64,000 nt of DNA from Escherichia coli. Its GTDB lineage: Bacteria > Pseudomonadota > Gammaproteobacteria > Enterobacterales > Enterobacteriaceae. The notes beneath the pieces were generated by a model. The model had not been told where the DNA came from. It did no database searches and worked only from the letters and a program-made list of their open reading frames with translations. The stretch lies in the NCBI RefSeq assembly GCF_003334315.1, contig NZ_QOWR01000015.1; one strand, 5' to 3'. Of this stretch, positions 28,180-55,985 are shown piece after piece; positions within the stretch are counted from its first letter, which is position 1; every line of letters starts with the position of its first letter. The translations under genes were made by a program, and so were the position numbers.

Positions 28180-28365
28180 TTTATCGCATCAGGCATTTAT
28201 CGCCTGATGCGACGCTGGCGCGTCTTATCATGTCTGGGATTTGATGCCTTTATCACAACAGGGACGAGGCCCGTAGATCGGATAAGGCGTTCACGCCGAA
28301 TCCGGCAGTTGTGCTCCGATGCCTGATGCGACGCTGGCGCGTCTTATCAGGCCTACAAAGGCATA
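28180..28365. repeat. REP/BIME cluster (three REP units)
   Basis: Two copies of GCCTGATGCGACGCTGGCGCGTCTTATCA (28202-28229 and 28321-28348) flank an inverted REP (CGGATAAGGCGTTCACGCCGAATCCGGC). Confidence 0.7.
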
Positions 28366-45632: not shown

Positions 45633-46526
45633 ATGAAACGCCCGGACTACAGAACATTACAGGCACTGGATGCGGTGATACGTGAACGAGGATTTGAGCG
45701 CGCGGCACAAAAGCTGTGCATTACACAATCAGCCGTCTCACAGCGCATTAAGCAACTGGAAAATATGTTCGGGCAGCCGCTGTTGGTGCGTACCGTACCG
45801 CCGCGCCCGACGGAACAAGGGCAAAAACTGCTGGCACTGCTGCGCCAGGTGGAGTTGCTGGAAGAAGAGTGGCTGGGCGATGAACAAACCGGTTCGACTC
45901 CGCTGCTGCTTTCACTGGCGGTCAACGCCGACAGTCTGGCGACGTGGTTGCTTCCTGCACTGGCTCCTGTGTTGGCTGATTCGCCTATCCGCCTCAACTT
46001 GCAGGTAGAAGATGAAACCCGCACTCAGGAACGTCTGCGCCGCGGCGAAGTGGTCGGCGCGGTGAGTATTCAACATCAGGCGCTGCCGAGTTGTCTTGTC
46101 GATAAACTTGGTGCGCTCGACTATCTGTTCGTCAGCTCAAAACCCTTTGCCGAAAAATATTTCCCTAACGGCGTAACGCGTTCGGCATTACTGAAAGCGC
46201 CAGTGGTCGCGTTTGACCATCTTGACGATATGCACCAGGCCTTTTTGCAGCAAAACTTCGATCTGCCTCCAGGCAGCGTGCCCTGCCATATCGTTAATTC
46301 TTCAGAAGCGTTCGTACAACTTGCTCGCCAGGGCACCACCTGCTGTATGATCCCGCACCTGCAAATCGAGAAAGAGCTGGCCAGCGGTGAACTGATTGAC
46401 TTAACGCCTGGGCTATTTCAACGACGGATGCTCTACTGGCACCGCTTTGCTCCTGAAAGCCGCATGATGCGTAAAGTCACTGATGCGTTACTCGATTATG
46501 GTCACAAAGTCCTTCGTCAGGATTAA
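45633..46526 (+). CDS. argP: LysR-family transcriptional regulator ArgP (IciA)
   Basis: ORF 45567-46526 trimmed to ATG at 45633 ([15 protein letters not shown]); N-terminal helix-turn-helix. Confidence 0.9.
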
Positions 46527-46730
46527 TCCATCAAATAATGCCTGATAGCACATATCAGGCGTTGTCCTCACTTCTTTTTGTATTCCTTGAATCACATCAC
46601 AAAATAGACAAATCTCAGGCGGCAAAAAACGACGTCTGAATGCATTTTTTTTTGCTGGCGACAAACCCACGTAAAAAGCTCACCGTAGGCGCAAATACCC
46701 TCATTTTGATTGCGTTTTACGGAGCAAATA

Positions 46731-48875
46731 ATGTCTAACGTGCAGGAGTGGCAACAGCTTGCCAACAAGGAATTGAGCCGTCGGGAGAAAACTGTCGACT
46801 CGCTGGTTCATCAAACCGCGGAAGGGATCGCCATCAAGCCGCTGTATACCGAAGCCGATCTCGATAATCTGGAGGTGACAGGTACCCTTCCTGGTTTGCC
46901 GCCCTACGTTCGTGGCCCGCGTGCCACTATGTATACCGCCCAACCGTGGACCATCCGTCAGTATGCTGGTTTTTCAACAGCAAAAGAGTCCAACGCTTTT
47001 TATCGCCGTAACCTGGCCGCCGGGCAAAAAGGTCTTTCCGTTGCGTTTGACCTTGCCACCCACCGAGGCTACGACTCCGATAACCCGCGCGTGGCGGGCG
47101 ACGTCGGCAAAGCGGGCGTCGCTATCGACACCGTGGAAGATATGAAAGTGCTGTTCGATCAAATCCCGCTGGATAAAATGTCGGTTTCGATGACCATGAA
47201 TGGTGCGGTGTTGCCGGTACTGGCGTTTTATATCGTCGCCGCAGAAGAGCAAGGTGTTACACCTGATAAACTGACCGGCACCATTCAAAACGATATCCTC
47301 AAAGAGTACCTCTGCCGCAACACCTATATTTACCCACCAAAACCGTCAATGCGCATTATCGCCGACATCATCGCCTGGTGTTCCGGCAACATGCCGCGAT
47401 TTAATACCATCAGTATCAGCGGTTACCACATGGGGGAAGCGGGTGCCAACTGCGTGCAGCAGGTAGCATTTACGCTCGCCGATGGGATTGAGTACATCAA
47501 AGCAGCAATCTCTGCCGGACTGAAAATTGATGACTTCGCTCCTCGCCTGTCGTTCTTCTTCGGTATCGGCATGGATCTGTTTATGAACGTCGCCATGTTG
47601 CGTGCGGCACGTTATTTATGGAGCGAAGCGGTCAGTGGATTTGGCGCACAGGATCCGAAATCACTGGCGCTGCGTACCCACTGCCAGACCTCAGGCTGGA
47701 GCCTGACTGAACAGGATCCGTATAACAACGTTATCCGCACCACCATTGAAGCACTGGCTGCGACGCTAGGCGGTACTCAGTCACTGCATACCAACGCCTT
47801 TGACGAAGCGCTTGGTTTGCCTACCGATTTCTCAGCACGCATTGCCCGCAACACCCAGATCATCATTCAGGAAGAATCAGAACTCTGCCGCACCGTCGAT
47901 CCGCTGGCCGGATCCTATTACGTTGAGTCGCTGACCGATCAAATCGTCAAACAAGCCAGAGCTATTATCCAACAGATCGACGAAGCCGGTGGCATGGCGA
48001 AAGCGATCGAAGCAGGTCTGCCAAAACGAATGATCGAAGAGGCCTCAGCGCGCGAACAGTCGCTGATCGACCAGGGCAAGCGTGTCATCGTTGGTGTCAA
48101 CAAGTACAAACTGGATCACGAAGACGAAACCGATGTACTTGAGATCGACAACGTGATGGTGCGTAACGAGCAAATTGCTTCGCTGGAACGCATTCGCGCC
48201 ACCCGTGATGATGCCGCTGTAACCGCCGCGTTGAACGCCCTGACTCACGCCGCACAGCATAACGAAAACCTGCTGGCTGCCGCTGTTAATGCCGCTCGCG
48301 TTCGCGCCACCCTGGGTGAAATTTCCGATGCGCTGGAAGCCGCTTTCGACCGTTATCTGGTGCCAAGCCAGTGTGTTACCGGCGTGATTGCGCAAAGCTA
48401 TCATCAATCTGAGAAATCGGCCTCCGAGTTCGATGCCATTGTTGCGCAAACGGAGCAGTTCCTTGCCGACAATGGTCGTCGCCCGCGCATTCTGATCGCC
48501 AAAATGGGCCAGGATGGGCACGATCGCGGCGCGAAAGTGATCGCCAGCGCCTATTCCGATCTCGGTTTCGACGTAGATTTAAGCCCGATGTTCTCTACAC
48601 CTGAAGAGATCGCCCGCCTGGCAGTAGAAAATGACGTTCACGTAGTGGGCGCATCCTCACTGGCTGCCGGTCATAAAACGCTGATCCCGGAACTGGTCGA
48701 AGCGCTGAAAAAATGGGGACGCGAAGATATCTGCGTAGTCGCCGGTGGCGTCATTCCACCGCAGGATTACGCCTTCCTGCAAGAGCGCGGCGTGGCGGCG
48801 ATTTATGGTCCAGGTACACCTATGCTCGACAGTGTGCGCGACGTACTGAATCTGATAAGCCAGCATCATGATTAA
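46731..48875 (+). CDS. scpA: Methylmalonyl-CoA mutase (cobalamin-dependent)
   Basis: ORF 46710-48875 trimmed to ATG at 46731 ([15 protein letters not shown]); C-terminal B12-binding DxHxxG motif (GQDGHDRG). Confidence 0.9.
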
Positions 48876-49863
48876 TGAAGCCACGCTGGCAGAAAGTATT
48901 CGCCGCTTACGTCAGGGTGAGCGTGCCACACTCGCCCAGGCCATGACGCTGGTGGAAAGCCGTCACCCGCGTCATCAGGCGCTAAGTACGCAACTGCTTG
49001 ATGCCATTATGCCGTACTGCGGTAACGCCCTGCGACTGGGCGTTACCGGCACACCCGGCGCGGGGAAAAGTACCTTTCTTGAAGCCTTTGGCATGTTGTT
49101 GATTCGTGATGGATTAAAGGTTGCGGTTATTGCGGTCGATCCCAGCAGTCCGGTCACTGGCGGTAGCATTCTCGGGGATAAAACCCGCATGAATGACCTG
49201 GCGCGTGCCGAGACGGCGTTTATTCGCCCGGTACCATCCTCCGGTCATCTGGGCGGTGCCAGTCAGCGAGCGCGGGAATTAATGCTGTTATGCGAAGCGG
49301 CGGGTTATGACGTAGTGATTGTCGAAACGGTTGGCGTCGGGCAGTCGGAAACGGAAGTCGCCCGCATGGTGGACTGTTTTATCTCGTTGCAAATTGCCGG
49401 TGGCGGCGATGATCTGCAGGGCATTAAAAAAGGGCTGATGGAAGTGGCTGATCTGATCGTTATCAACAAAGACGATGGCGATAACCATACCAATGTCGCC
49501 ATTGCCCGGCATATGTACGAGAGTGCCCTGCATATTCTGCGACGTAAATACGACGAATGGCAGCCACGGGTTCTGACTTGTAGCGCACTGGAAAAACGTG
49601 GAATCGATGAGATCTGGCACGCCATCATCGACTTCAAAACCGCGCTAACTGCCAGTGGTCGTTTACAACAAGTGCGGCAACAACAATCGGTGGAATGGCT
49701 GCGTAAGCAGACCGAAGAAGAAGTACTGAATCACCTGTTCGCGAATGAAGATTTCGATCGCTATTACCGCCAGACGCTTTTAGCGGTCAAAAACAATACG
49801 CTCTCACCGCGCACCGGCCTGCGGCAGCTCAGTGAATTTATCCAGACGCAATATTTTGATTAA
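48868..49863 (+). CDS. argK: MeaB/ArgK-type GTPase (mutase chaperone)
   Basis: 331-aa ORF with P-loop GTPGAGKST; overlaps the scpA stop by 8 nt. Confidence 0.9.
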
Positions 49864-49873
49864 AGGAATTTTT

Positions 49874-50659
49874 ATGTCTTATCAGTATGTGAACGTTGCC
49901 ACTATCAACAAAGTGGCGGTCATTGAGTTTAACTATGGCCGAAAACTTAATGCCTTAAGTAAAGTCTTTATTGATGATCTTATGCAGGCGTTAAGCGATC
50001 TCAACCGGCCGGAAATTCGCTGTATCATTTTGCGCGCGCCGAGTGGATCCAAAGTCTTCTCCGCAGGCCACGATATTCACGAACTGCCGTCTGGCGGTCG
50101 CGATCCGCTCTCCTATGATGATCCGTTGCGTCAAATCACCCGCATGATCCAAAAATTCCCGAAACCGATCATTTCGATGGTGGAAGGTAGTGTTTGGGGT
50201 GGCGCATTTGAAATGATCATGAGTTCCGATCTGATCATCGCCGCCAGTACCTCAACCTTCTCAATGACGCCTGTAAACCTCGGCGTCCCGTATAACCTGG
50301 TCGGCATTCACAACCTGACCCGCGACGCGGGCTTCCACATTGTCAAAGAGCTGATTTTTACCGCTTCGCCAATCACCGCCCAGCGCGCGTTGGTAGTCGG
50401 CATCCTCAACCATGTTGTGGAAGTGGATGAACTGGAAGATTTCACCTTACAAATGGCGCACCACATCTCTGAGAAAGCGCCGTTAGCCATTGCCGTTATC
50501 AAAGAAGAGCTGCGTGTACTGGGCGAAGCACACACCATGAACTCCGATGAATTTGAACGTATTCAGGGGATGCGCCGCGCGGTTTATGACAGCGAAGATT
50601 ACCAGGAAGGGATGAACGCTTTCCTCGAAAAACGTAAACCTAATTTCGTTGGTCATTAA
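49874..50659 (+). CDS. scpB: Methylmalonyl-CoA decarboxylase (crotonase family)
   Basis: ORF 49832-50659 trimmed to ATG at 49874 (MSYQYVNVATINK) with AAGGA RBS. Confidence 0.9.
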   Translation: MSYQYVNVATINKVAVIEFNYGRKLNALSKVFIDDLMQALSDLNRPEIRCIILRAPSGSKVFSAGHDIHELPSGGRDPLSYDDPLRQITRMIQKFPKPIISMVEGSVWGGAFEMIMSSDLIIAASTSTFSMTPVNLGVPYNLVGIHNLTRDAGFHIVKELIFTASPITAQRALVVGILNHVVEVDELEDFTLQMAHHISEKAPLAIAVIKEELRVLGEAHTMNSDEFERIQGMRRAVYDSEDYQEGMNAFLEKRKPNFVGH

Positions 50660-50682
50660 TCCCTGCGAACGAAGGAGTAAAA

Positions 50683-52161
50683 ATGGAAACTCAGTGGACA
50701 AGGATGACCGCCGATGAAGCGGCAGAAATTATCCAGCATAACGACATGGTGGCATTTAGTGGCTTTACCCCAGCGGGTTCGCCGAAAGCCCTACCCACCG
50801 CGATTGCCCGCAGAGCTAACGAACAGCATGAGGCCAAAAAGCCGTATCAAATTCGCCTGCTGACGGGGGCGTCAATCAGCGCCGCCGCTGACAATGTACT
50901 TTCTGACGCCGATGCTGTTTCCTGGCGTGCGCCATATCAAACATCGTCCGGTTTACGTAAAAAGATCAATCAGGGCGCGGTGAGTTTCGTTGACCTGCAT
51001 TTGAGCGAAGTGGCGCAAATGGTCAATTACGGTTTCTTCGGCGACATTGATGTTGCCGTCATTGAAGCATCGGCACTGGCACCAGATGGTCGAGTCTGGT
51101 TAACCAGCGGGATCGGTAATGCGCCGACCTGGCTGCTGCGAGCGAAGAAAGTGATCATTGAACTCAATCACTATCACGATCCGCGCGTTGCAGAACTGGC
51201 GGATATTGTGATTCCTGGCGCGCCACCGCGGCGCAATAGCGTGTCGATCTTCCATGCAATGGATCGCGTCGGTACCCGCTATGTGCAAATCGATCCGAAA
51301 AAGATTGTCGCCGTCGTGGAAACCAACTTGCCCGACGCCGGTAATATGCTGGATAAGCAAAATCCCATGTGCCAGCAGATTGCCGATAACGTGGTCACGT
51401 TCTTATTGCAGGAAATGGCGCATGGGCGTATTCCGCCCGAATTTCTGCCGCTGCAAAGTGGCGTGGGCAATATCAATAATGCGGTAATGGCGCGTCTGGG
51501 GGAAAACCCGGAAATTCCTCCGTTTATGATGTATTCGGAAGTGCTACAGGAATCGGTGGTGCATTTACTGGAAACCGGCAAAATCAGCGGGGCCAGCGCC
51601 TCCAGCCTGACAATCTCGGCCGATTCCCTGCGCAAGATTTACGACAATATGGATTACTTTGCCAGCCGCATTGTGTTGCGTCCGCAGGAGATTTCCAATA
51701 ACCCGGAAATCATCCGTCGTCTGGGCGTCATCGCTCTGAACGTCGGCCTGGAGTTTGATATTTACGGGCATGCCAACTCAACGCACGTAGCCGGGGTCGA
51801 TCTGATGAACGGCATCGGCGGCAGCGGTGATTTTGAACGCAACGCGTATCTGTCGATCTTTATGGCCCCGTCGATTGCTAAAGAAGGCAAGATCTCAACC
51901 GTCGTGCCAATGTGCAGCCATGTTGATCACAGCGAACACAGCGTCAAAGTGATCATCACCGAACAAGGGATCGCCGATCTGCGCGGTCTTTCCCCGCTTC
52001 AACGCGCCCGCACTATCATTGATAATTGTGCACATCCTATGTATCGGGATTATCTGCATCGCTATCTGGAAAATGCGCCTGGCGGACATATTCACCACGA
52101 TCTTAGCCACGTCTTCGACTTACACCGTAATTTAATTGCAACCGGCTCGATGCTGGGTTAA
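50683..52161 (+). CDS. scpC: Propionyl-CoA:succinate CoA transferase
   Basis: 492-aa ORF, acetyl-CoA hydrolase/transferase family; last gene of the scpA-argK-scpB-scpC operon. Confidence 0.9.
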   Translation: METQWTRMTADEAAEIIQHNDMVAFSGFTPAGSPKALPTAIARRANEQHEAKKPYQIRLLTGASISAAADNVLSDADAVSWRAPYQTSSGLRKKINQGAVSFVDLHLSEVAQMVNYGFFGDIDVAVIEASALAPDGRVWLTSGIGNAPTWLLRAKKVIIELNHYHDPRVAELADIVIPGAPPRRNSVSIFHAMDRVGTRYVQIDPKKIVAVVETNLPDAGNMLDKQNPMCQQIADNVVTFLLQEMAHGRIPPEFLPLQSGVGNINNAVMARLGENPEIPPFMMYSEVLQESVVHLLETGKISGASASSLTISADSLRKIYDNMDYFASRIVLRPQEISNNPEIIRRLGVIALNVGLEFDIYGHANSTHVAGVDLMNGIGGSGDFERNAYLSIFMAPSIAKEGKISTVVPMCSHVDHSEHSVKVIITEQGIADLRGLSPLQRARTIIDNCAHPMYRDYLHRYLENAPGGHIHHDLSHVFDLHRNLIATGSMLG

Positions 52162-53054
52162 TGACTCGTCCCGTCACGATCTTCAGCAATATGCTGAAGC
52201 ATCGTGGCGGTATAACGATGATTTCTGATTGAATAAAGATATTCCTGCATATACATCGGCCTGTGCGGTGCATCAAAATATTTCAGCGTTGCCGGATTCA
52301 CCAGTCGCCAGGCAAAATGCGGGATCACCGTCAGAAAATGTCCGCGCTCCACGGCGCTGATTTTGGCCATAAAACTGTAGGGACGATAAATAATGGTTGG
52401 ATTGATCCCACAAGGTCGCATATTCGCATCAATCATTGCTTCGAAGTTGGCCCGGTTCTGAAAGCGCATTTGTAGCCAGGGCAGCTCCTGAAGCAGCTCT
52501 TGCTCTTGACGCTCTTCATAACGGCGAGAAACGAGAAAGCCCAATCGCAGCGGCGGTAGTTCACTGATAGTCAGGTTTTCCAGTTCCTGAACTCGTGCAG
52601 ATACATGCTGTGGGGAGATAATAAAATCTAACTGACGGTCAAAAAGATTATCGATAACGCCATTTTCGCTGAACTCAACTGGCTGGGCGGTCACGCCTTC
52701 ATACTTATCTCCGAGACTAATCAACTGATCGAAAATAATTGTCGGATAAGTATTATCTATGCCAATCACAATTTCTCGTGAACGACGCCCTGAGTTATGG
52801 ATTTCATTATCAATCGCAGAAAGTCGTTGATAAACCGGGAACAGTTTTTGATACAGTTCCTGTCCGGCTTTATTGAGGCTGATATTATTATCTTTGCGGG
52901 TAAATAGCGTATAGCCAATTTGTTCTTCCAGCGCGGCAATGCTTTTACCAAATGGCGAAGCCGTCATATGGATTTTTTCTGCCGCCCGGGCAATATTATT
53001 GGTTTGCGCTAATAAAATGAAATTGCGCATCTTTTTCGAAATAAAAATGTCCAT
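52158..53054 (-). CDS. ygfI: LysR-family transcriptional regulator YgfI
   Basis: 298-aa ORF with N-terminal HTH; stop overlaps the scpC stop by 4 nt (convergent). Confidence 0.85.
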   Translation of the reverse strand: MDIFISKKMRNFILLAQTNNIARAAEKIHMTASPFGKSIAALEEQIGYTLFTRKDNNISLNKAGQELYQKLFPVYQRLSAIDNEIHNSGRRSREIVIGIDNTYPTIIFDQLISLGDKYEGVTAQPVEFSENGVIDNLFDRQLDFIISPQHVSARVQELENLTISELPPLRLGFLVSRRYEERQEQELLQELPWLQMRFQNRANFEAMIDANMRPCGINPTIIYRPYSFMAKISAVERGHFLTVIPHFAWRLVNPATLKYFDAPHRPMYMQEYLYSIRNHRYTATMLQHIAEDRDGTSH

Positions 53055-53221
53055 CCCCCCTCCCCCGCATCCTTGTCCGCTTAACCGTTTCAGTCAGCCT
53101 ATCCTTGATGAAACCGCGAGCAAAGATAGGTGATTACGTCATGGTTTTACAGAAAATTACAGAAAAAGGAGGCAATATCGGGTAAAGGCATTAGCCCGAC
53201 GAATACGTCGGGCTACAAGTA

Positions 53222-53962
53222 TTATTGTGCTGCAGGTGTTTTAGCGGGTTGTTGATCCACAGGTTCTAACTGGAAGACCACATCGACCTGATCATCAAAC
53301 TGAATAGCGGCCTGCTCGTAAGTTTCCTGGGCGGACACCGGCGCGGCATCGGCTTTCATCATCCGCACCATTGGGCTGGGCTGATAGTTGGAAACATGGT
53401 AGCGCACGCTATATACCGGCCCCAGTTTACGATGAAAGCCGTTCGCCAGTTCCTGCGCCTGATGAATCGCGTTATCAATCGCTGCCTTACGCGCTTTGTC
53501 TTTATAGGCATCCGGCTGCGCCACGCCCAGCGACACAGAACGAATTTCGTTAAGACCCGCCTTCAGCGCACCATCCAGCAAGGAATTCAGTTTGTCTAAC
53601 TGACGGAGCGTGACTTCCACCGTTCTCACAGCGCGGTAGCCTTTAAGGATACTTTTACCATCCTGATAATCATAATCTGGCTGGGTGCGTAAGTTCGCTG
53701 AGCTGATATCTTTTTTCGCGATCTGATTGAGTTCAAGGAAGGAAATGTATTGTGCGACGCGCTCATCTGCCTGTTTCTTGGCAGTAGCGGCATCCTTCGC
53801 GGCCACGTTAACTTCAATCGCAAGAGTGGCAATGTCTGGCACCGCATCCACACTTGCCGTACCGGAGGTGACAATATGCGGTCCATCCGGCAATTCGTTA
53901 GCCTGCGCTGCCATCCCGCTAATACCCATTAATGCCGCCAGGGCGATAACTTTGAACTTCAC
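53222..53962 (-). CDS. yggE: Periplasmic DUF541/SIMPL-family protein YggE
   Basis: 246-aa ORF with N-terminal signal peptide. Confidence 0.85.
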   Translation of the reverse strand: MKFKVIALAALMGISGMAAQANELPDGPHIVTSGTASVDAVPDIATLAIEVNVAAKDAATAKKQADERVAQYISFLELNQIAKKDISSANLRTQPDYDYQDGKSILKGYRAVRTVEVTLRQLDKLNSLLDGALKAGLNEIRSVSLGVAQPDAYKDKARKAAIDNAIHQAQELANGFHRKLGPVYSVRYHVSNYQPSPMVRMMKADAAPVSAQETYEQAAIQFDDQVDVVFQLEPVDQQPAKTPAAQ

Positions 53963-55879: not shown

Positions 55880-55985
55880 GTCATGCCGGATGCGGCGTGA
55901 ACGCCTTATCCGGCCTACAAAAACCTGCAAATTCAATATATTGCAGGATACGTGTAGGCCTGATAAGCGTAGCGCATCAGGCAAT
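55880..55985. repeat. REP pair (BIME) downstream of fbaA
   Basis: GCCGGATGCGGCGTGAACGCCTTATCCGGCCTAC and inverted GTAGGCCTGATAAGCGTAGCGCATCAGGC. Confidence 0.7.

Follow-up and report, generated by a model that had tools for sequence, protein, structure and literature searches.

The scpA-argK-scpB-scpC operon of Escherichia coli and the convergent gene ygfI, which lie within a 64,000-nt stretch of DNA (the window), appear to form one ancient, co-transferred unit. In the reading that we consider fairly probable, a known and silent operon travels together with ygfI, the TTAA shared by the two converging stop codons is a by-product, the scp mRNA would end at a hairpin, and the ygfI mRNA is presumably stopped by Rho. 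The co-travel of the five genes across many bacteria is the new part, while the locus and its overlap are already known. The observation in an earlier note on this DNA was not new, since the locus is annotated and the scpC-ygfI pair has already been catalogued as an excludon.

The region is the annotated sbm/scp "sleeping beauty mutase" locus of E. coli (Table 1). The scpA product matched the NCBIfam equivalog NF006944 with 1253 bits (cut-off 876), and its C-terminal B12-binding domain also matched TIGR00640. The argK product scored 495 bits (NF006958, cut-off 329), the scpB product 485 bits (NF008506, cut-off 257), and the scpC product 754 bits (TIGR03458, cut-off 659) and 602 bits (NF053853, cut-off 500). 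The ygfI product was assigned to the SrsR equivalog NF047842 with 635 bits (cut-off 425), and YgfI orthologues carry the Pfam domains HTH_1 (PF00126) and LysR_substrate (PF03466). Mutase, MeaB-type GTPase, decarboxylase, and CoA-transferase genes follow one another on a single strand in the order that defines the E. coli sbm/scp operon, with gaps of 10 nt between argK and scpB and 23 nt between scpB and scpC. The 8-nt overlap of the scpA and argK coding sequences, read directly from the sequence, is common to all Enterobacterales loci compared. The earlier note had named these genes, their close packing, and the scpA/argK overlap, and all three were borne out by the ORF list, the raw sequence, NCBIfam, and RefSeq.

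Table 1. Genes and sequence elements of the scp-ygfI region (positions are those of the window).
Feature	Position	Strand	Length	Description	Basis or remark
CRP-like site	46586-46601	+		CTTGA-N6-TCACA, upstream of scpA	Putative; weak consensus match
Palindromic element	46616-46659	none		Conserved CAGGCGGCAAAAAACGA-N-TTTTTTTTTGCTGGC, candidate operator	Poly-T at 46645-46653
scpA (sbm)	46731-48875	+	714 aa	Cobalamin-dependent methylmalonyl-CoA mutase	NCBIfam, RefSeq annotation
argK (ygfD/meaB)	48868-49863	+	331 aa	Mutase-associated G-protein chaperone, MeaB-type GTPase	NF006958
scpB (ygfG)	49874-50659	+	261 aa	Methylmalonyl-CoA decarboxylase, crotonase fold	NF008506
scpC (ygfH)	50683-52161	+	492 aa	Propionyl-CoA:succinate CoA-transferase	TIGR03458, NF053853
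ygfI (srsR, alias dhfA)	52158-53054	-	298 aa	LysR-type transcription factor, convergent on scpC	NF047842
Shared stop tetramer	52158-52161	both		TTAA	TAA for scpC (+), TAA for ygfI (-)
Terminator-like stem-loop and tail	52166-52233	+		Candidate end of the scp mRNA, tail TTTCTGATTGAA	Within ygfI codons 278-297

The operon sits between argP and ygfI-yggE, and the locus found matches in 5426 of 5426 E. coli genomes, many at 100% identity. In RefSeq, K-12 MG1655 and the E. coli chromosomes that are identical or nearly so to this region show equal geometry, annotated as scpA-meaB-scpB-scpC/srsR. The K-12 operon (b2917-b2920, with ygfI/srsR as b2921) is alike in its genes, order, overlaps, and junction. 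Over argP-ygfI, the window and MG1655 share 99.06% identity, and the YgfI protein and the junction are identical; the differences include 2-3 amino-acid changes per scp protein and a poly-T tract of T9 in the upstream palindrome, compared with T8 in MG1655.

A YgfI orthologue (58-99% identity) was found tail-to-tail with scpC in all 43 scp-bearing loci of Enterobacterales and Aeromonas, a sample of 43 species that are not phylogenetically independent. The neighborhoods retrieved for nine genera represent at least six unrelated flanking contexts; in these, every YgfI orthologue examined adjoins an scp operon, and the boundary of the transferred block falls exactly at ygfI. The Aeromonas copy of the block shows 85-89% amino-acid identity, and therefore a recent transfer of exactly these five genes is indicated. 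YgfI belongs to a narrow family, in which full-length matches extend only down to about 61% identity. The unit is also retained in lineages where scpC and ygfI are separated by 128-186 nt or overlap for longer. In about 1150 of the 5426 E. coli genomes, about a fifth of the complete ones, the operon has been lost and ygfI is intact. Taken together, the five genes appear to have been both inherited and horizontally transferred as a unit. In the literature searched, we found no description of the linkage in 43 of 43 loci, the six contexts, the overlap in 33 of 43 species, or the palindrome upstream of scpA.

The coding sequences of scpC (stop TAA, 52159-52161) and ygfI (stop TAA, the reverse complement of 52158-52160) overlap by 4 nt at their stops, as the earlier note had reported; ORF list and raw sequence agree on this, and the geometry is that of RefSeq. 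The same spacing (-4) occurs in 33 of the 43 species, and the tetramers TTAA, TTAG, CTAA, and CTAG are all represented. In the other loci, the spacing is -6 (n = 2), -9 (n = 1), -15 (n = 2), -30 (n = 2), -40 (n = 1), 0 (n = 1), or +186 (n = 1), so that a spacer is absent in 42 of 43; two further genomes have +3 and +128. We considered whether the 4-nt overlap is a rare event and rejected this, as 2 of the 9 convergent gene pairs in the window share a TTAA, the second being yqfG/yqfH (18821-18824). A neutral model of 3'-end extension reportedly accounts for the length distribution of convergent overlaps (Kingsford et al. 2007, as summarized in PMC3887535). The shared TTAA is probably an old, mutationally "sticky" by-product of coding regions that abut without a spacer, in which only the outer bases drift because a change of the central TA destroys both stops together. 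The exact length of the overlap is probably not under selection and seems to be neutral. Alternatively, selection for antisense coupling, and not inertia, could account for the near-universal lack of a spacer.

With no spacer available, the 3' ends of both RNAs must form within the partner gene. A hairpin begins 5 nt past the scpC stop; its stem spans 52166-52221, with core arms at 52171-52188 and 52192-52210 identified by an inverted-repeat search. Folding of 52150-52290 gave a minimum free energy of -46.6 kcal/mol (z = -3.6), and none of 200 shuffled sequences was equally stable. An alignment of 17 sequences shows the hairpin to be conserved, 5 of its 16 pairs having double changes, and synonymous-site identity is raised across the ygfI codons that encode it. 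In most lineages, recoding the peptide with synonymous codons gives a less stable structure, the exceptions being Yersinia and one Kosakonia species, in which the hairpin was not significant by this comparison. The tail that follows reads gaTTTTTca in most genera and is an interrupted T-tract, TTTCTGATT, in E. coli. The site resembles a Rho-independent terminator in having a long G+C-containing stem-loop directly after the stop and then a T-run (TTTTT in most genera). However, it lies wholly inside a coding sequence of the opposite strand, its T-tract is interrupted in E. coli, and a consensus terminator scan did not call it. The earlier statement that no terminator lies between the genes is literally correct, as there is no intergenic DNA at all, but it overlooks a conserved, unusually stable hairpin and the T-rich tail after it, both inside ygfI.

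Most likely, this hairpin and tail, within the final 20 codons of ygfI, mark the point where the scp mRNA ends or to which it is trimmed, which would make a sense/antisense overlap of about 60-75 nt unavoidable. For the ygfI mRNA, the 130 nt of minus strand past the ygfI stop, inside scpC, showed no structure beyond chance (z = +0.9), and no terminator-like site was found on this strand before 50535. No C-rich, G-poor stretch resembling a Rho-utilization site was obvious just beyond either stop. The ygfI mRNA is predicted to run antisense into scpC without a recognizable intrinsic terminator and to be stopped otherwise, presumably by Rho.

The four genes had also been described as a complete set for converting succinate to propionate. 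Their identities hold, and the completeness of the pathway needs qualifying. Haller et al. (2000) reportedly proposed a succinate-to-propionate cycle. On the other hand, the sbm pathway has been called incomplete because propionate is formed from glucose only when methylmalonyl-CoA epimerase, which is missing, is added (PMC5512728), and the literature on this point is divided. None of the genomes examined has an epimerase gene within the five-gene block. The operon is hardly expressed in E. coli (PMC3850637) and has been described as silent (PMC5512728), and the literature searched names neither an inducer nor a native regulator. A sigma-70 consensus scan of the intergenic regions upstream of scpA and ygfI found no promoter in either, and a -10 element could not be placed with confidence upstream of either gene. 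A search for known RNA families over 46300-53400 gave nothing credible, which indicates that no known riboswitch or leader is present.

Upstream of scpA, the palindromic element occurs in each of the 11 genomes with ygfI that were examined, drawn from at least six flanking contexts, and the Sodalis version is a near-perfect palindrome of 33 bp. Its pattern has only 2 other matches across all loci compared, and it is absent upstream of scpA in the one Methylococcales operon examined, which has no ygfI. The CRP-like site reads TTTGA-N6-TCACA in Klebsiella and Salmonella and has close variants in aligned Aeromonas and Yersinia sequences; in the Sodalis group it was not evident in the alignment upstream of scpA.

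The linkage, the flanking contexts, the stop overlap, and the palindrome suggest, without proving it, that the operon has its own regulator in YgfI, a proposition that we regard as about evenly balanced. YgfI resembles other LysR regulators with an adjacent cognate operon in its HTH_1/LysR_substrate architecture, its strict adjacency, and the dyad-symmetric element upstream of the operon. In contrast to the typical divergent pairing, ygfI converges on the operon from its 3' end and lies 5.4 kb away from the scpA promoter. Also unlike such pairs, scp has not been reported as a target: genomic SELEX identified 10 SrsR sites, none of them at scp (PMC9181523), and a study combining published ChIP-exo with new RNA-seq named dhaKLM and never mentioned the scp genes (PMC9068703). 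Apart from the excludon table, nothing in the literature searched connects ygfI with scp. An apparent likeness of the scpA palindrome to the SrsR box was not supported statistically. The box TCAGATTTTGC, allowing up to 2 mismatches, had 33 matches in the window against 25 +/- 4.6 expected, which is no enrichment, and none in the scpA promoter. With a weight matrix built from 13 published SrsR boxes, the scpA half-sites ranked no higher than the top ~0.13% of positions in the window, not a significant result for a 200-nt region. Upstream of ygfI, the alignment shows no element kept across contexts that could serve as an autoregulatory site.

A more specific proposal is that YgfI/SrsR is a dedicated, effector-responsive sbm regulator acting at the palindrome, maybe together with CRP, and that the junction and the hidden terminator tune its level; we consider this less likely than not. 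Laboratory silence of the operon would then stem from the absence of its inducer, and possibly also from expansion of the operator poly-T in E. coli to T7-T9, compared with T6 in other genera. The junction without a spacer and the terminator within the ygfI coding sequence might adjust the amount of regulator through antisense read-through.

Convergent interference between scp and ygfI transcription is plausible, and the idea is not new. ExcludonFinder lists scpC-ygfI among 165 convergent excludons of MG1655, with transcript overlap in at least 50% of 58 RNA-seq data sets (PMC12288877). The tail-to-tail junction might be a selected device of this type giving feedback between regulator and operon, in which antisense reading into ygfI or scpC would lower the partner, either because polymerases collide or because RNase III cuts the duplex. 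The near-universal lack of a spacer, the excludon listing of the pair, and the lack of a terminator for the ygfI mRNA would fit such a device, and srsR is not always silent, its mRNA rising about 25-fold in stationary phase (PMC9181523). However, the transcript overlap is obligatory where coding regions overlap, so that any such transcribed pair scores as an excludon by definition, and the literature searched gave no report for scpC-ygfI of mutually exclusive expression, of RNase III processing, or of expression with scp on and off. The intact unit also coexists with the gaps and longer overlaps noted above, the conserved hairpin would restrict scp read-through to about 70 nt, and interference in laboratory E. 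coli is probably small because the operon is almost off (PMC3850637). We consider a selected device of this kind unlikely.

Slightly less likely again is that the adjacency is functionally meaningless. YgfI would then be the stationary-phase/stress factor SrsR (or DhfA) acting on other targets, the scpA palindrome would bind a different factor encoded by the host, and the hairpin would follow incidentally from the peptide sequence at the YgfI C-terminus. The SELEX and dhaKLM studies, the non-significant box statistics, and the E. coli genomes that keep ygfI after operon loss agree with this reading. Against it, all YgfI orthologues examined are scp-attached in at least six contexts with the block ending at ygfI, the palindrome accompanies ygfI and is missing from the one Methylococcales operon examined, and the hairpin exceeds synonymous recodings in stability.

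The stop overlap alone matters little, as it restates an annotated locus and a catalogued overlap. The terminator-like hairpin inside a coding sequence is a small, clean example of how abutting convergent genes could form 3' ends without intergenic DNA. The co-inherited LysR regulator, the candidate operator, and the natural deletion series offer handles on the role and the inducer of sbm. Those who engineer the sbm operon for propionate, 1-propanol, or odd-chain products might also benefit from the regulator and operator leads.

The ORF table and the raw sequence bore out all of the coordinates and overlaps that the earlier note had given for the scp (sbm) operon, scpA-argK-scpB-scpC, and for the convergent LysR-type regulator gene ygfI. 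In the raw sequence, the start of argK overlaps the end of scpA by 8 nt, and the other gaps within the operon are 10 and 23 nt. On inspection, a Shine-Dalgarno-like purine run was seen ahead of scpA, scpB, and scpC but not of argK, the gene that overlaps scpA. The + strand reads GGT TAA at 52156-52161 and the - strand reads CAT TAA, ending at 52158 (raw sequence). Since both readings end in TAA there, the TTAA at 52158-52161 is common to the two coding sequences. The window contains 9 convergent gene pairs, 2 of which share a TTAA stop tetramer, and the scpC-ygfI overlap is not unusual. Additionally, a neutral model of 3'-end extension, as cited in PMC3887535, has been reported to account for convergent overlap lengths. 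The second TTAA stop-stop overlap is located at 18821-18824, between the small-protein genes yqfG (+) and yqfH (-).

Features of the scp-ygfI region (window coordinates)
Feature	Position	Strand	Source
CRP-like motif, CTTGA-N6-TCACA	46586-46601		
Palindrome (candidate operator)	46616-46659		
T-run within the palindrome	46645-46653		
scpA	46731-48875	+	ORF table and raw sequence
argK (meaB)	48868-49863	+	ORF table and raw sequence
scpB	49874-50659	+	ORF table and raw sequence
scpC	50683-52161	+	ORF table and raw sequence
Folded RNA segment	52150-52290	+	
Stem-loop	52166-52221	+	
ygfI	52158-53054	-	ORF table and raw sequence

With ScpC as the query and one genome per species, 80 loci were retrieved. 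A YgfI orthologue (58-99% identity) lies convergently and directly after scpC in all 43 Enterobacterales and Aeromonas loci with scpA-meaB-scpB-scpC. The stop-to-stop gap in these 43 loci (negative for overlaps) is -4 in 33, in which all four possible tetramers (TTAA, TTAG, CTAA, and CTAG) occur; -6, -15 (Salmonella arizonae and diarizonae), and -30 in 2 each; and -9, -40, 0, and +186 (Sodalis) in 1 each. Beyond this set, the gap is +3 in a Hafnia genome and +128 in "Martelella alba". The exact overlap length is probably not essential, given that the five-gene unit also occurs with other overlaps and with gaps. A change in the central TA would destroy both stops, so only the outer bases of the tetramer drift, which matches the four tetramers seen. 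On the best-supported reading, the five genes would constitute one unit, and the shared stop would be a frozen by-product of two abutting coding regions.

The five-gene block was found in at least six unrelated neighbourhoods when contexts with 10-kb flanks were compared (loci L005-L039 and L085-L097). It lies between yggE and argP in Escherichia, Klebsiella, and Salmonella, between yniB and a fructosamine kinase gene in Yersinia, between flagellar genes with a small HTH gene and kup-kdpA in Aeromonas, between an MFS transporter gene and a dehydrogenase gene with a CsoR-like gene in the Acerihabitans group, and beside other neighbours in Sodalis, Hafnia, and "Martelella". The Aeromonas block proteins are 85-89% identical to those of E. 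coli, and this similarity points to recent horizontal transfer of exactly the five-gene block. YgfI forms a narrow family: full-length relatives extend only to about 61% identity. Methylococcales carry a four-gene scp operon without ygfI. No account of the conserved unit and its contexts was found in the literature searched. The CoA-transferase also occurs outside the block, as a stand-alone ScpC paralogue (80% identical) in Citrobacter braakii ATCC 51113 (locus L048, 4001-5476) has no scpA, meaB, scpB, or ygfI nearby.

In E. coli, the 6.8-kb stretch matched all 5426 complete genomes, many at 100% identity, and the genes in the matching genomes are named scpA, meaB, scpB, scpC, and srsR in RefSeq, flanked by argP and yggE. 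The window DNA is from a strain other than K-12: identity to MG1655 over argP-ygfI is 99.06%, and the junction and the YgfI protein are the same. At least 80% of the region is covered in only 4273 of the 5426 genomes, the remainder typically showing 36-37%, and the operon is decayed in about 1150 of the 5426, among them the type strain, ATCC 11775. In that strain, window positions 47750-52007 and the smaller segments 47022-47049 and 47658-47710 are deleted (relative to the locus L002). The deletion of ~4.3 kb fuses a scpA stub to the final 153 nt of scpC, so that both genes persist as pseudogene stubs, with srsR intact and the 4-nt junction unchanged. Deletion-bearing genomes with intact srsR thus indicate that the operon is dispensable and that ygfI is kept. 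In an otherwise 100%-identical strain, the match (H1, NZ_AP027829.1 1875744-1883321) is split in two pieces and spans 7578 bp against a 6801-bp query, indicating an IS-sized insertion of ~0.78 kb within the argP-yggE interval. Elsewhere in the window, Rfam matches at the gathering score were obtained for 6S RNA (ssrS, 41863-42046), a Sib antitoxin RNA opposite the ibsC toxin gene (42695-42845), naRNA4 (28276-28353), and ES036 (55919-55961).

The sequence just beyond scpC folds strongly. The + strand RNA segment reached -46.6 kcal/mol versus -34.0 ± 3.5 kcal/mol for shuffled sequences (z = -3.6; 0 of 200 as stable), and a long stem-loop, beginning 5 nt past the scpC stop and spanning ygfI codons 278-297, makes up the dominant part of the fold. 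The hairpin was found in 17 aligned sequences from Escherichia, Citrobacter, Klebsiella, Salmonella, Yokenella, Pluralibacter, Superficieibacter, Kosakonia sacchari, two further enterobacteria, and Aeromonas, with both-side changes at 5 of 16 pairs. In most lineages its stability exceeds that of 300 synonymous recodings of the YgfI tail (z -2 to -4); in Yersinia and Kosakonia pseudosacchari it does not. In 9 of 9 comparisons with E. coli, the hairpin codons show greater synonymous codon identity than the remainder of ygfI does; the difference is individually significant (p < 0.05) in only 3. The tail after the stem reads gaTTTTTca in most genera and TTTCTGATT in E. coli; a consensus terminator scan did not call the hairpin. 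It resembles an intrinsic terminator, or else a stem protecting the 3' end, that would serve scp mRNA from within the opposite gene. On the - strand, the RNA downstream of the ygfI stop is not structured beyond chance (z = +0.9), and no terminator-like site was detected by scanning until 50535.

Alignment of scpA upstream regions from 7 contexts, followed by a search of 11 genomes, revealed a conserved block with the palindrome CAkGCGkCAAAwAAyGA-N-TTTTTTGmnrGC. A candidate operator, it occurs upstream of scpA in all examined genomes that carry ygfI, is near-perfect over 33 bp in Sodalis, and is absent from the Methylococcales scp promoter examined, where ygfI is lacking. Only two other matches to the pattern occurred across all loci retrieved. 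Its T-run is T9 in the window, T8 in K-12 MG1655, T7 in ATCC 11775, and T6 in every other genus examined, and this tract length might shift the half-site spacing in the E. coli promoter. The half-conserved CRP-like motif upstream of it in E. coli corresponds to TTTGA-N6-TCACA in several genera, with close variants in Klebsiella, Salmonella, Aeromonas, and Yersinia. No comparable common element was found by aligning ygfI upstream regions. To the eye, the palindrome is similar to the published SrsR box, but the similarity was not significant in a weight-matrix scan.

YgfI has been renamed SrsR, in work that reports 10 sites by genomic SELEX, a TCAGATTTTGC box, and srsR mRNA rising 25-fold in stationary phase (PMC9181523), and also DhfA, an activator of dhaKLM (PMC9068703); the scp genes are mentioned in neither report. 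That the operon has its own regulator in YgfI is favoured by the conserved linkage and by the palindrome's co-occurrence; published binding studies and the persistence of ygfI where the operon has been lost argue against it, and we consider regulation of the operon by YgfI about evenly balanced.

The earlier note had proposed a complete succinate-to-propionate gene set and interference by convergent transcription; its observations were upheld, and its interpretation is partly supported. The gene identities are sound, as all five proteins exceeded the curated NCBIfam cut-offs in a profile search (methylmalonyl-CoA mutase, MeaB GTPase, methylmalonyl-CoA decarboxylase, YgfH-type succinate CoA-transferase, and LysR regulator SrsR). 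However, the complete route is contested, since the native operon is described as an incomplete pathway because methylmalonyl-CoA epimerase is needed (PMC5512728). The finding as first written is already known, its central idea having been catalogued: scpC-ygfI is among 165 convergent excludons, present in at least half of 58 MG1655 transcriptomes (PMC12288877).

Without a spacer, each mRNA must acquire its 3' end within the partner gene: the scp mRNA probably terminates at the embedded hairpin, and the ygfI mRNA probably somewhere inside scpC in a factor-dependent manner. Sense/antisense overlap is thus unavoidable when both are transcribed. The operon, which bears the name "sleeping beauty mutase" operon, is described as hardly expressed (PMC3850637), so the antisense effect is likely small in E. 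coli. That the arrangement is a selected excludon seems unlikely, and a full scenario combining a YgfI regulator, the palindrome, and antisense tuning, somewhat less so, is still doubtful. As new leads, all modest, the analysis yields the five-gene unit, the hairpin embedded in ygfI, and the candidate operator.
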